UHGV virus genome: UHGV-1832352 | DNA length: 18,550 nt | Direction: 5' to 3' (one strand) | From: a virus | In this document: positions 4,890-8,404 of the stretch, piece after piece | How positions within the stretch are numbered: position 1 is the stretch's first letter | Layout of the letters: the number at the start of each line of letters is the position of its first letter | The notes under the pieces: model-generated | The model's input: only the letters and a program-made list of their open reading frames with translations | Databases searched by the model: none | Told to the model about the DNA's origin: nothing | Position numbers and translations under genes: made by a program

Positions 4890-5383
4890 TAAGCCCCCAC
4901 GTAATTCCCTGAGAGATACCACTCTTCACCTGATGCAGCCCGCTTACTGCTTTTCCGTAAACACCGTTCACGACGCGCCAGAAAATTGTTTCGTTCTGGC
5001 TGGGAGTGGCTTTCACGGAATGCCGCCATCCACACCGTTGCAGCACGACGGTATAAGCCCCTGGACTCCAGTTCTTCCGCCTGGCGGGTCAGGCACAAAA
5101 TCTCCCGCGGGTCGTTAGTGCCGACATAGAAATTGCGCATAGGTCTGGTTTCACGAACTGGTTGTAGTTCCGGATCCTGCGCTCTCTCAGTCAGGCGCGG
5201 GAAATGTCTGTGTGTATCTCCTTCACAACGGTGAGCCACACGCCCACTCTGACGTAACTTGCTTGCTGACTGCAGAACGCGCTGCCGTGAGTAACCTGCA
5301 AAAGCATCCGCAATGTCTCCGGAAGTACAGCCCGGATGGGCTTCAATGAATTTCTGAACGTCATTCAAAAGACTCATGCTCAC
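4889..5383 (-). CDS. Hypothetical regulator, wHTH-like N-terminus and PerC-like C-terminal motif (GLYRRAATVW)
   Basis: 164-aa ORF; ATGA overlap with the O-like gene stop at 5380-5383; PerC-family resemblance is from memory of the GLWRRAA..W motif. Confidence 0.6.
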   Translation of the reverse strand: MSMSLLNDVQKFIEAHPGCTSGDIADAFAGYSRQRVLQSASKLRQSGRVAHRCEGDTHRHFPRLTERAQDPELQPVRETRPMRNFYVGTNDPREILCLTRQAEELESRGLYRRAATVWMAAFRESHSQPERNNFLARRERCLRKSSKRAASGEEWYLSGNYVGA

Positions 5384-6372
5384 CCCCTGAATCCTGCCGG
5401 GATCTGGCTGTAGTCCACATTGTCGTAACTGGCTTTGAAGTACGGGTCTTCGCGTTTTTCTGTGTACGTGCTGACGGACGGCGATAAGCGCAGGGAAAGC
5501 TCATCCCATTTTTCCCGCAGCTTCGACGGGCTGAGCACGTTACGGCACCAGAACGGATCGCGGCTGACGCGGCTGTACATCTCGCAGATTTGTTTGTGAG
5601 TACGACCATCCTGCACACACATCAGGCGAATTTCGTTTGCCCATGCTGTCCAGTTCGGTTCTTTGGGACGAACCACCTCGCCGTCACATTCGGCGGCCTG
5701 CTCGTACAGGGCGATGATTTTTTTCCAGAGCCACTGTGCGCAGGTCAAATCATCCTGCGTTCCCCACTGGCGCTTTTTAGGGCTGAATACAACCGCATCA
5801 GGATGGCGAGTTAAAAACTCCTGTTCAGCCGTTTGCGTGTCCGGTTGCGAAGCGTCCGGACGAGAAGAGGTTTTATTCTCTGTAGTAATCTCTGTTGTAT
5901 TCTCTGTAAGATCATTGGGCCATTTTGACCCGATGACAGCGTGTCGTTTTGAACCAATGGATCGTGTCATTTTGCGCCCATCCATCAGGTCACTTTGACC
6001 CGATGGAGAAGTGCATTTTGACCTGATGGATTCGTTCACTTTGACCTCTTCTAAAAGCTCACTTTCATAGTTGATCGTGTAGAAGTTGGTCATGTCACGC
6101 TTCGATTTATTGAGTTGCTCGCGACGCAAAACCCCAAGTGATTTCAGGCTTGCAAATGTGCGTTTCAGAGTGGACTCTGACCAGAACGGAAACTGCTCCA
6201 GCCACTGTTCTGTCGTGTTATAAACCCAGCGAATTCCGCCATGCTCAGTGCCTGAATTCGTTTCATTCAGCCAGTAATGAAGCTGCTGCAACACAATTGC
6301 CTCATTCAGACCAATACGGCATGCAAGATCACGATTTATCACAATGGGCTGGGATGTCATTAACAGGCTCAT
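5380..6372 (-). CDS. Replication initiation protein (lambda O-like) containing the origin iterons
   Basis: 330-aa ORF directly after the cro/CII-position genes; six 23-bp-phased direct repeats lie inside its coding sequence, followed in the direction of transcription by an A/T-rich stretch, as in lambda O/ori. Alternative start at the second Met (6360). Confidence 0.75.
   Translation of the reverse strand: MSLLMTSQPIVINRDLACRIGLNEAIVLQQLHYWLNETNSGTEHGGIRWVYNTTEQWLEQFPFWSESTLKRTFASLKSLGVLRREQLNKSKRDMTNFYTINYESELLEEVKVNESIRSKCTSPSGQSDLMDGRKMTRSIGSKRHAVIGSKWPNDLTENTTEITTENKTSSRPDASQPDTQTAEQEFLTRHPDAVVFSPKKRQWGTQDDLTCAQWLWKKIIALYEQAAECDGEVVRPKEPNWTAWANEIRLMCVQDGRTHKQICEMYSRVSRDPFWCRNVLSPSKLREKWDELSLRLSPSVSTYTEKREDPYFKASYDNVDYSQIPAGFRG
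5921..6048. repeat. Origin iterons: six direct repeats, consensus about CAYTTTGACCNGATGG, 23-bp periodicity
   Basis: Repeat starts at 5921, 5945, 5968, 5991, 6014 and 6037 (last copy partial); spacing 24, 23, 23, 23, 23 bp; located within the O-like coding sequence. Confidence 0.8.
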
Positions 6373-6541
6373 GACCGACCTCTATTTCCCTGAATTTACG
6401 ACGAAACTGTTCGAGCGGACTGAAGCATTCATGTTCATAGCCTTCACGGAGGTAGATAACCCGTTGTGTTTCCGGCTCCCAACGAATGACTCTGACGGGC
6501 ACTCCGTAGTGATCTTTGAACCAGCGGTTAACTTGTCGCAA
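6329..6541 (-). CDS. Hypothetical small protein (70 aa, [24 protein letters not shown]...)
   Basis: TTG start at 6541 preceded by AAGGAGA with about 8-nt spacing; protein-like composition. Overlaps the 6382..6720 ORF in another frame and the O-like start. Confidence 0.4.
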
Positions 6542-6720
6542 AGGACTGTCTCCTTCTGCCGGTTGAAATCACCCACAGCCCACTCTGCAAAGCTGTGGGT
6601 TACAATTTCCCTGTCACCTGGTACATTCACTGCATAGCAATACTCCACCTTCGCTTTTCCACCCGGTACAGGAAGCGCAATCAGTTGCGAGCGACGGTAG
6701 TGTGTTGTTAAACTGTTCAT
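6382..6720 (-). CDS. Hypothetical protein (112-aa ORF; possibly only the N-terminal part is genuine, or frameshifted into 6329..6541)
   Basis: ATG at 6720 overlaps the stop of the upstream gene (ATGA), suggesting translational coupling; the C-terminal half looks less protein-like. Confidence 0.35.
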
Positions 6721-7378
6721 GCGTTAGTTTCTCCACAACCAGAAGCAATCGACGCCACGACGCCCGGAGCTGCACACTCGCGGGCGTTACTCTTTTCCGG
6801 CGCACAAAAAACACGAAATAACAGTGTTAAATGCTCCTGCCACTTCGCCATTACTTGGTAGCTGTTCTCTTCGATTTGCTCACGCTCAGCCTGGTCAATA
6901 ACTCCATCAGCAGTTGCCTTGCGTAAGTACTGGGAATGCTTGCCAATCCATTCTATTGACTCCATCAGCCGCTGATTAATGTCACCATTGTCAATGTCAT
7001 CAATGACCACCAGCGGCACAAACACCCCATTACTACGACGGGCTATTGCATCTGTTACATGCCTGGTACCACTGGCATCCTGTAAAACCATGGCCCACTC
7101 AAGTGGAAAAATTTGATCCCCACCGCTACGCAGTCTGTTATGCAATTGATCTTTTGCTGGGGTGATATCATCAGATTTATACAAACCAAGAATTTCTGCT
7201 GCTTCCTCATAGCCATGAGGTAAATCAGCAATCGTTCTTCGTATTGCTGCCACCAGCCATGCTGGTTGTTTATCAACTTTCCATTCAGGTTCTTTACCCA
7301 CGGTTAATTCCTCATTTCTGTGGTTACGTTTACGCAGCTGAACCGCTAACTTTTGAATAGCACTCAGGTAATCCATCA
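6717..7378 (-). CDS. Hypothetical regulatory protein in the cII position (YdaT/CII-like placement)
   Basis: Long ORF immediately downstream of the cro-like gene. Start taken at MMDYLSAIQ (7378); the ORF-track start at 7412 would overlap the cro-like gene more. Family assignment is tentative. Confidence 0.55.
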
Positions 7379-7593
7379 TTTGGATTGGGGTAAATATCAG
7401 GACGCAGTTCATGAGGGGTCACGGACCAGTTTCCCAACTCACAAAGTTGTAAAACCCGTTCTGACGGGACTTGATTGTTAATTACCCAATTAGCGACGGA
7501 TTGAGTGGACTTAAAACCAAAGCGACGGGCTACTTCAGATAAAGATTTTCCCGCAGCCTTTACTGCTTTCTCTGTGTAGTTTTGAGATGACAT
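7330..7593 (-). CDS. Cro-like HTH regulator (YdaS/DUF1019-type)
   Basis: 87 aa; ...SEVARRFGFKSTQSVANWVINNQVPSERVLQLCELGNWSVTPHELRPDIY resembles YdaS-family Cro analogs; divergent from the CI-like gene; SD GAGGAG upstream. Confidence 0.8.
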   Translation of the reverse strand: MSSQNYTEKAVKAAGKSLSEVARRFGFKSTQSVANWVINNQVPSERVLQLCELGNWSVTPHELRPDIYPNPNDGLPECYSKVSGSAA

Positions 7594-7625: not shown

Positions 7626-7661
7626 CTACTTAAAATAGCAAAATGCAACTACTTAAAATAG
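7626..7661. promoter_or_regulatory. Right operator region: two copies of CTACTTAAAATAG, 23 bp apart
   Basis: Identical 13-bp sites at 7626-7638 and 7649-7661 in the cro/cI divergent intergenic region; partial dyad (CTA...TAG); the same motif recurs at 9567-9602. Confidence 0.55.
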
Positions 7662-7699
7662 AAATGACTAGTGTATGTGATGTGAGTAATCTTCTACCT

Positions 7700-8404
7700 A
7701 TGGTAGAAGAACAGAAGTATCCAGATTTCGCCAAGAGACTAAACGAGCTAATGACAAACAAGGGAATTTCTGTCACCCAACTCAAAAGTCTTGTGGGCGT
7801 TACATATGAAATGGCGCGGCGATACACAATCGGCGCTGCGAAGCCTCGTGCCTCTGTCATGAATAAACTTGCATTGGCTCTGGGGGTATCAGCTTCATAT
7901 TTAGAATATGGTGTTGGCGAGAGAGAAGGATGTAAGGAAATGGCAAGCATCCCCAATCCAACGAAACCCGATGTATACAGGATAGAAGTTTTGGATCTTA
8001 GCGTTAGCGCAGGACCTGGGACCTATATGCTTTCAGACTATGTTGATGTGCTCTACGCCATTGAGTTCACAACAGAACATGCCCGTTCTCTTTTCGGCAA
8101 CCGTTCTCAGAATGATATTAAGGTTATGACTGTAAATGGCGATAGTATGTCCCCTACACTCGTTTCCGGAGACCGACTGTTTGTCGACATTTCTGTTCGT
8201 CACTTCCAGACTGATGGAGTTTACTCTTTCGTTTACGGTAAGACTTTTCATGTCAAACGTCTTCAAATGCAAGGTGACAAGCTAGCCGTTCTTTCGGATA
8301 ACCCCGCCTATGAGAAATGGTACATCGATGAAAAATCGCAGGATCAGCTTTATGTAATGGGCAAGGCGTTGATTCACGAATCTATAAAATACAACCGATT
8401 GTAA
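7700..8404 (+). CDS. CI-type prophage repressor (HTH_XRE plus S24 LexA-like autopeptidase domain)
   Basis: HTH (ISVTQLKSLVGVTYEMARRYT), Ser nucleophile context MTVNGDSMSPTL and Lys context HVKRLQ. Start uncertain (7643, 7664 or 7700); no SD upstream, consistent with a leaderless cI-like mRNA. Confidence 0.85.
   Translation: MVEEQKYPDFAKRLNELMTNKGISVTQLKSLVGVTYEMARRYTIGAAKPRASVMNKLALALGVSASYLEYGVGEREGCKEMASIPNPTKPDVYRIEVLDLSVSAGPGTYMLSDYVDVLYAIEFTTEHARSLFGNRSQNDIKVMTVNGDSMSPTLVSGDRLFVDISVRHFQTDGVYSFVYGKTFHVKRLQMQGDKLAVLSDNPAYEKWYIDEKSQDQLYVMGKALIHESIKYNRL

Follow-up and report, generated by a model that had tools for sequence, protein, structure and literature searches.

Two probable same-strand genes in overlapping frames, ymfM and a DUF4222 gene, in an e14-like prophage region

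Overview

The virus genome UHGV-1832352 was analysed over a stretch of 18,550 nucleotides (nt), referred to here as the window. Within it, in an e14-like lambdoid early-right/immunity region, two open reading frames (ORFs) of 112 and 70 amino acids (aa) overlap out of frame between a gene in the CII position and an O-like replication gene. A preliminary description of this DNA had placed two readings side by side: two short genes, or a single gene disrupted by, or using, a -1 frameshift. Comparison with related loci makes it very probable that the region holds two independently initiated genes on the same strand, ymfM and a gene of the DUF4222 family, joined by a conserved long out-of-frame overlap, and we infer that both are translated. 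Over the shared DNA, amino-acid selection was found in the DUF4222 frame and not in the ymfM frame, and the latter appears to be kept free of stop codons up to a stop that sits at the start of the replication gene.

Organization and identity of the overlapping genes

All features of the locus lie on the minus strand unless stated otherwise, and coordinates are window positions. The ymfM ORF (6382-6720), a YmfM/SfiC homologue, encodes 112 aa and closes with a TAG stop. It opens at an ATGA (6717-6720, read directly from the sequence) in which the TGA stop of ymfL shares bases with the ymfM ATG, and the string cgcATGaac is found at this junction in every one of the 16 lineage representatives described below. 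The part without overlap, residues 1-59 (6544-6720), includes a conserved core of approximately residues 1-55; the tail, residues 60-112 (6385-6543), is rich in S, T, A and G and overlaps DUF4222. The DUF4222 gene (6329-6541) lies in the -1 frame of ymfM, encodes 70 aa and starts with TTG. Its Shine-Dalgarno (SD) sequence, AAGGAGA (6549-6555), stands 7 nt upstream of the TTG, and its frame is closed by a TGA (6569-6571) 27 nt upstream of the start codon. The two genes share 160 nt (6541-6382). At its other end, the 70-aa ORF enters the O-like gene, whose ATG is at 6372, by 44 nt, with a C-terminal extension (residues 56-70, 6329-6376) that reads the 5' end of the O-like gene in another frame. 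The ymfM stop (6382-6384) falls within TAGAGG, in the SD region of the O-like gene, 9 nt before its ATG. The coordinates, the ATGA coupling, the TTG, the AAGGAGA, the overlap of about 160 nt and the intrusion into the O-like gene had all been given in the preliminary description, and each was confirmed from the sequence.

Homology searches identified both products. The 112-aa ORF is 96% identical over 112 aa to b1148 (YmfM) of the K-12 e14 element, with equal length and five nucleotide differences; the RefSeq name of the b1148 product is 'cell division inhibitor YmfM'. It is matched over its full length by phrog_1170 and over residues 1-63 by phrog_20047 (63 aa), and it lies between ymfL and the replication gene of an e14-like immunity region, the position held by K-12 YmfM. 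The likeness to e14 ymfM, evident in identity, length and position, extends to a nested DUF4222 ORF, which in K-12 has 59 aa. PF13973 (DUF4222) matches the 70-aa ORF with 66.5 bits against a cut-off of 27, residues 2-53 aligning with profile positions 3-52 of 53, and both the Prokaryotic Genome Annotation Pipeline (PGAP) and NCBI name the protein DUF4222 (WP_001250270.1). No NCBIfam model matched either ORF. By sequence similarity, then, the 112-aa ORF is YmfM and the 70-aa ORF is a DUF4222 protein.

Conservation of the two-frame layout

Of 5426 complete E. coli genomes, 2004 carry the cassette at ≥95% identity, K-12 among them, which excludes a sequencing error or a private mutation as its origin. 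Approximately 350 related loci were gathered and reduced to about 170 distinct ymfM-DUF4222 regions, from which 16 representatives more than 10% divergent in DNA were chosen. A scan of genome contigs with a YmfM alignment yielded only 6 loci and a first scan of viral contigs only near-identical copies; more varied relatives were obtained by using divergent proteins as seeds in later scans. The lowest identities to the window among these relatives are 39% for the YmfM N-domain and 33% for DUF4222.

Across this range the geometry is constant. Among the distinct regions and the 16 representatives, the DUF4222 start lies 170-179 nt past the ymfM ATG (179 nt here), always in the -1 frame. The start codon itself is TTG, ATG or GTG depending on the lineage, ATG in most, and occupies the same aligned position in all; a GGAG-type SD precedes it at the same place in most lineages, and an in-frame stop closes the DUF4222 frame 15-66 nt upstream. 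The ymfM frame is open for 111-117 codons across the representatives, and one large group has the ymfM stop 7 nt past that of DUF4222, which is then wholly embedded. The C-terminal extension of DUF4222 ranges from 0 to 30 residues and varies with the replication module downstream. The identical two-frame layout occurs in the functional temperate phages mEp460_4F5, SKA5, SfII and SfIV, while Serratia, Yersinia and EKP1 phages carry DUF4222 as a stand-alone gene. Both frames are open in all 16 representatives and in about 29-30 of the DUF4222 clusters examined in a later section. These alignments with related prophage regions show two conserved frames, each having a start and a stop of its own, even where protein identity drops to 33-40%, and they uphold the suggestion of two short genes.

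Selection on the shared DNA

Substitution patterns assign the shared DNA to DUF4222. Between the window and K-12, all four substitutions in the overlap are synonymous in DUF4222 and non-synonymous in ymfM, and the sole substitution upstream of the overlap is synonymous in ymfM. Over thousands of sequence pairs, differences within the overlap cluster at the third codon position of DUF4222, equivalent to the second of ymfM. The rates there, for three divergence bins in turn, are 0.064, 0.22 and 0.54; the remaining two positions show 0.006-0.03 in both bins of low divergence. The rate at DUF4222 position 3 is not below the position-3 rate of the non-overlapped ymfM N-domain, where variation is concentrated at that domain's own third codon positions.

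An overlap-aware dN/dS analysis in the style of OLGenie gave the same picture. DUF4222 showed pNN/pSN values of 0.04-0.17, indicating strong purifying selection. For the ymfM tail, pNN/pNS was 0.49, 2.15, 1.60 and 1.14 by bin; with the same estimator the N-domain gave 0.11-0.27 and a mock non-coding frame 0.63-0.82. No amino-acid-level constraint on the ymfM tail was detected, either by the codon-position test or by overlap-aware dN/dS set against the mock frame; over the shared DNA, amino-acid selection was found in DUF4222 and not in the tail. Judged by these patterns, the N-domain and DUF4222 are constrained protein-coding sequence, and the amino-acid sequence of the tail is unconstrained.

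Predicted structures agree with this division. In the AlphaFold model of YmfM, residues 1-66 have block-mean predicted local distance difference test (pLDDT) values of about 58-81 (65-81 over residues 1-60) and form three strands and two helices; residues 68-109 fall below 50 and are predicted to be disordered. The earlier remark that a protein-like appearance is limited to the first 55-60 residues is thus borne out by both the selection analysis and the model. DUF4222 is modelled as a small beta-barrel, with block-mean pLDDT of 78-91 over residues 1-50 and values below 50 for residues 58-70; the extension that reaches into the O-like gene is thus predicted to be disordered. Its Foldseek matches, to KOW, Tudor, SH3-like and KorB-C folds, are weak (E = 0.03-0.5), and the protein is best described as a predicted SH3-like small beta-barrel of about 55 residues. 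Foldseek with the YmfM model matched nothing meaningful.

A separate resemblance was set aside. YmfM residues 19-50 (6571-6666) match repeats of giant proteins of 1100-1700 aa, which carry up to 13 such stretches belonging to the Listeria-Bacteroides repeat (Flg_new) or DUF7507; this is probably a compositional or beta-hairpin resemblance and not homology.

Absence of stop codons from the tail frame

The probability that one frame stays open, given the other, was computed by exact dynamic programming, holding the DUF4222 protein fixed and drawing its codons from local usage. For the window, the 112-aa frame is open with a probability of 0.065 under such resampling, and the DUF4222 frame, with the 112-aa tail held fixed, with a probability of 0.004; the overlap therefore exceeds chance expectation. 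Applied to the 16 representatives with the DUF4222 protein of each held fixed, the calculation leaves the ymfM frame open with a probability of 0.017 to 0.22 per lineage and a geometric mean of 0.075. The ymfM frame was open in 16 of 16 and the third frame closed in 16 of 16.

The tail frame lacks stops in all of approximately 165 distinct sequences. Codon choice in DUF4222 is consistent with this: wherever one of the synonymous codons would put a stop into the ymfM frame, a harmless one is used. All 484 valine codons that precede a codon starting with A are GTT or GTC, with both in use and GTG or GTA never found, whereas in harmless contexts GTG is the commonest valine codon (52%).

A natural control was provided by grouping DUF4222 genes into 40 clusters. 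A ymfM-like gene reads through DUF4222 in approximately 29-30 of them, and every one of these is free of internal stops in the -1 frame. Among the roughly ten clusters without such read-through, five have 1-4 core stops in that frame. DUF4222 genes of the Serratia type, which follow a KilA-N gene, carry 3-6 stops in the ymfM-equivalent frame over the whole gene.

Five metagenomic viral contigs (L115, L143, L144, L145 and L147) carry different nonsense codons in DUF4222 with the ymfM frame intact. These may be real losses or assembly errors. No premature stop was found in the ymfM tail among the distinct sequences, as against these five with one in DUF4222. Taken together, the tail reading frame appears to be actively kept stop-free, as far as sequence comparison can tell.

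Stop anchoring and a possible link to the replication gene

The end of the ymfM frame is fixed in position. Relative to the replication-gene ATG, the ymfM frame ends somewhere from 11 nt inside the gene to 9 nt before it (-11 to +9) in each of the 16 representatives, placing the upstream stop within a few nt of the downstream start, as in coupled junctions. At least five unrelated replication modules follow the anchored stop. The DUF4222 stop varies by module, either forming an ATGA overlap with the replication ATG or lying 11-86 nt inside the replication gene. In Entomohabitans and Atlantibacter loci from which DUF4222 is deleted, ymfM-like ORFs of 78 and 75 aa end at the start of the replication gene. 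Relatives that lack the long overlap, for example Yersinia phage YeP2 and locus L321, have instead an ATGA chain running from the N-domain gene to DUF4222 and on to the replication gene.

Since the tail is open and its stop is anchored at the replication start, translation to the annotated ymfM stop appears to matter. Ribosomes would enter ymfM from ymfL through the ATGA overlap and travel on to the ymfM stop at the SD and ATG of the replication gene. The early operon would in this way be kept continuously translated, with its ORFs translationally linked end to end, and in the common layout ymfM would bridge the nested DUF4222 gene. The shared sequence itself is dictated by the DUF4222 protein, the tail takes whatever amino acids the synonymous sites of DUF4222 leave it, and DUF4222 codon choices that create stops in the ymfM frame are purged by selection. 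Translational linkage to the replication gene is put forward tentatively, as the most likely cause of the open frame and one with not quite an even chance of being right. The main alternative, possible but rather doubtful and not exclusive with coupling, is a need for a disordered C-terminal tail of loose sequence. A 'ribosome bridge' tail whose peptide is irrelevant, linked to an SfiC filamentation that needs or is caused by DUF4222, is a more speculative proposal that could hold but would more probably fail. If the tail were such a bridge, the nested DUF4222 gene could evolve freely as a protein under one rule, that of placing no stops in the other frame.

The preliminary description had also supposed that, if there are two genes, the first might terminate functionally early. 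This stands in part: the tail amino acids are unconstrained and predicted to be disordered, and the claim fits poorly with a frame that is kept stop-free and ends at an anchored stop.

Weighing the alternatives

Several observations weigh against the account given above. The first bin of the tail analysis (0.49) falls under the mock baseline, a value drawn from about 0.3 differences per pair. Five control clusters without a ymfM-like ORF are still open in the -1 frame, and the contrast between clusters is therefore real but not absolute. Because the lineages share ancestry and a handful of metagenome studies supplied many of them, open frames cannot be counted as independent events. Tail-less N-domain proteins of 53-69 aa exist, including stand-alone ones of 59-68 aa in more distant relatives, and neither tail nor read-through can therefore be universally required. 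Coupling would not be obligatory because the replication gene has an SD of its own. Expression data for either frame were not found, nor was a ribosome-profiling paper mentioning ymfM and ymfL; translation of both frames is read here from evolutionary comparison, and coupling and the product responsible for division inhibition are likewise inferred.

Some of these observations lend support to a reading with two genes in which the tail is meaningless read-through, the functional YmfM is the N-domain, and openness reflects chance and shared ancestry. It would account for a tail that is unconstrained, predicted to be disordered and dispensed with in the tail-less relatives, and for the DUF4222 genes that are open in the -1 frame where no ymfM-like gene reads through. 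It accounts poorly for the finding that only 1.7-22% of synonymous recodings are open, yet all 16 representatives and about 29-30 clusters are; for risk sites that alternate between GTT and GTC and never use GTG or GTA; for the complete lack of premature tail stops among distinct sequences, compared with five in DUF4222; and for a stop that remains anchored at the replication ATG even where DUF4222 is deleted. This reading is considered improbable.

A programmed -1 frameshift near 6540-6568, giving a YmfM-N/DUF4222 fusion alone or beside the 112-aa product, is very unlikely, even though the frame relation is indeed -1 and the DUF4222 frame is open from 6568, such that a shift in the 27-nt interval before the TTG, or in the overlap, would yield a fusion. 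Between the upstream stop of the DUF4222 frame and the ymfM stop, each of the 16 lineages lacks an X_XXY_YYZ heptamer in the ymfM frame, and no homopolymer run of five or more is common to all of them; the search for slippery heptamers at the frame junction that had been proposed at the outset was accordingly negative. RNAalifold on 12 lineages returned 0 consensus pairs at the junction, and an Rfam search of the window gave no match. The downstream frame has initiation signals of its own, with a positionally conserved start that usually carries an SD, and DUF4222 is a free-standing gene elsewhere. Single-frame fusions do occur in databases (P0023, P0031, P0052, P0059, P0065, P0150 and P0165), but each has a different junction. 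They are mostly singletons or small clusters, the largest with 14 member sequences, and their source is in nearly every case a Logan, ENA or JGI assembly of raw reads or metagenomes; they look like sporadic indels or assembly errors and not like an ancestral state. These results lend no support to the suggestion of a single gene using or disrupted by a -1 frameshift. A pseudogene, in which one ancestral gene was broken by a frameshift mutation, would explain why two frames are needed to read the region and why PGAP leaves 176 nt unannotated upstream of DUF4222. It is left with next to no probability by the recurrence of the same layout in 2004 E. coli genomes, in functional temperate phages and in lineages at 33-40% identity, and by purifying selection on both the N-domain and DUF4222. 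Equally hard to credit is the idea that ymfM alone is real and that the DUF4222 family in Pfam arose as an artefact of annotating an alternative frame. Curated K-12 and RAST/Prokka-style phage annotations do list ymfM only, but within the overlap it is the third positions of DUF4222 that vary, its pNN/pSN is 0.04-0.17, DUF4222 is present where the ymfM frame is full of stops, and its fold is predicted with confidence.

A hairpin of 6 bp that would sequester the SD (6540-6556, GAAGGA:UCCUUU, taking in the first two bases of the UUG start; z = -2.2) was also considered. It is predicted in the window lineage, shows no conserved counterpart in the other lineages and was dropped as a regulatory element.

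Comparison with known overlapping and coupled genes

Nested and overlapping genes are familiar in phages, and it is well supported that the arrangement of ymfM and DUF4222 is an instance of them, with each gene individually known already. In lambda Rz/Rz1, the nearest analogue among lambdoid phages, one gene is wholly embedded in the +1 frame of another, and both products are needed and interact. The ymfM locus is similar in the near-complete, same-strand, out-of-frame embedding of a small gene with its own start; it differs in that the embedding frame, where the two genes share DNA, is free of stops but shows no constraint on its amino acids. Translational coupling by stop/start overlap or by termination-reinitiation, for example at ATGA junctions, is common to bacterial and phage operons. 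The ATGA at ymfL/ymfM and the ymfM stop within 11 nt of the replication ATG resemble these cases, whereas ymfM has to cross a whole nested gene before the next start, and a dependence of the replication gene on it is a prediction only. Programmed -1 frameshifting is exemplified by the lambda G/GT tail chaperone and by dnaX, which share with this locus two overlapping frames in a -1 relation; here, by contrast, neither a slippery site nor a conserved stimulatory structure is present, and the downstream frame has a start and an SD.

Implications for SfiC and for annotation

The phenotype attributed to ymfM comes from K-12, where experimental work has identified the gene as the long-sought sfiC. 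Cloned ymfM causes filamentation and blocks Z-ring formation, accounting for the SfiC phenotype, and the gene is treated as a single 112-aa gene encoding the SOS-associated division inhibitor SfiC (Ansari et al., bioRxiv 10.1101/2020.11.19.390815). Two library screens mapped only fragments with the whole ymfM region. Both the pBAD24 ymfM clone and the ymfM deletion of Ansari et al. span the SD, the TTG and 53 of the 59 codons of K-12 DUF4222. Because clone and deletion affect both genes, the SfiC phenotype fits the YmfM or the DUF4222 product alike, and division inhibition by the YmfM of the window would be assigned by analogy with a K-12 clone that also carries most of DUF4222. Should ymfM harbour the coding sequence of a second conserved protein, SfiC filamentation could belong to either product. 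No mention of a second frame was found in the ymfM papers examined, and no account of two genes coexisting in overlapping frames was found. DUF4222 is mentioned in five papers, a single time in each and never in a title or abstract, and no description of a function was found within that coverage.

Databases record the two genes separately. In the sampled PGAP genomes, re-annotated K-12 strains included, DUF4222 is annotated and ymfM is not; in strain KGu016, PGAP leaves the ymfM N-domain in a 176-nt unannotated gap, and in L001 and L360 the PGAP gap is 6542-6716. The curated NC_000913.3 and phage records of the RAST/Prokka type carry ymfM only, without DUF4222. Among the records examined, none annotates both genes together. 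The conflict is systematic, with pipelines keeping one of the two genes. The PF13973 family description, small enterobacterial prophage proteins, does not capture burial in the 3' half of another gene, which is where DUF4222 lies here and in most relatives. The ymfM tail is also a clear natural example of an overlapping frame under selection to stay open but not to keep its sequence, and as such a useful test case for methods that detect overlapping genes.

Variant loci and neighbouring genes

Some loci depart from the common layout. In SfV (orf37, L275 752-1588) and ST64B (sb41, L276 758-1915), the ymfM-like frame continues past DUF4222 into a Rha/antirepressor-like gene. The annotated 'regulators' of 278 and 385 aa in these two phages start with a ymfM-like N-domain and cross DUF4222 out of frame; each could be either a real fusion or an over-extended start call. 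Four further loci (L289-L292, approximately 776-1162 in each) have a 128-aa ORF (MAWGKKKAEQLQ...) with an unrelated N-terminus that spans the entire DUF4222 gene in the -1 frame and occupies the ymfM position, after a cII-like gene. They may represent an independent instance of the ymfM/DUF4222 architecture. A different kind of variation is seen in P0020, P0021, P0022, P0024 and P0027, the last with 128 member sequences, which turn into unrelated sequence just after '...SRKHNGL'. The point of divergence corresponds to window position ~6455, YmfM residue 88 and DUF4222 residue ~29, and suggests a recurrent breakpoint of rearrangement or insertion within the overlap.

The genes around the overlap follow the order cI-like, cro-like, ymfL, ymfM, DUF4222 and O-like. 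The cI-like repressor gene lies at 7643-8404 on the plus strand, and the cro-like gene at 7330-7593. The O-like replication initiator gene (5380-6372) matches phrog_391, replication initiation O-like, with E = 1e-101. The gene in the CII position (6717-7412) belongs to the YmfL family (NCBIfam NF041471, phage_reg_YmfL, 180.5 bits), and its longest ORF has 231 aa. This longer start is doubtful because it would put the first ~37 codons within the cro-like gene. PGAP places the ymfL start at 7301 (585 nt, 194 aa) in a genome that matches window positions 6200-6900 exactly, where the prophage adjoins dinF, yjbJ and zur.

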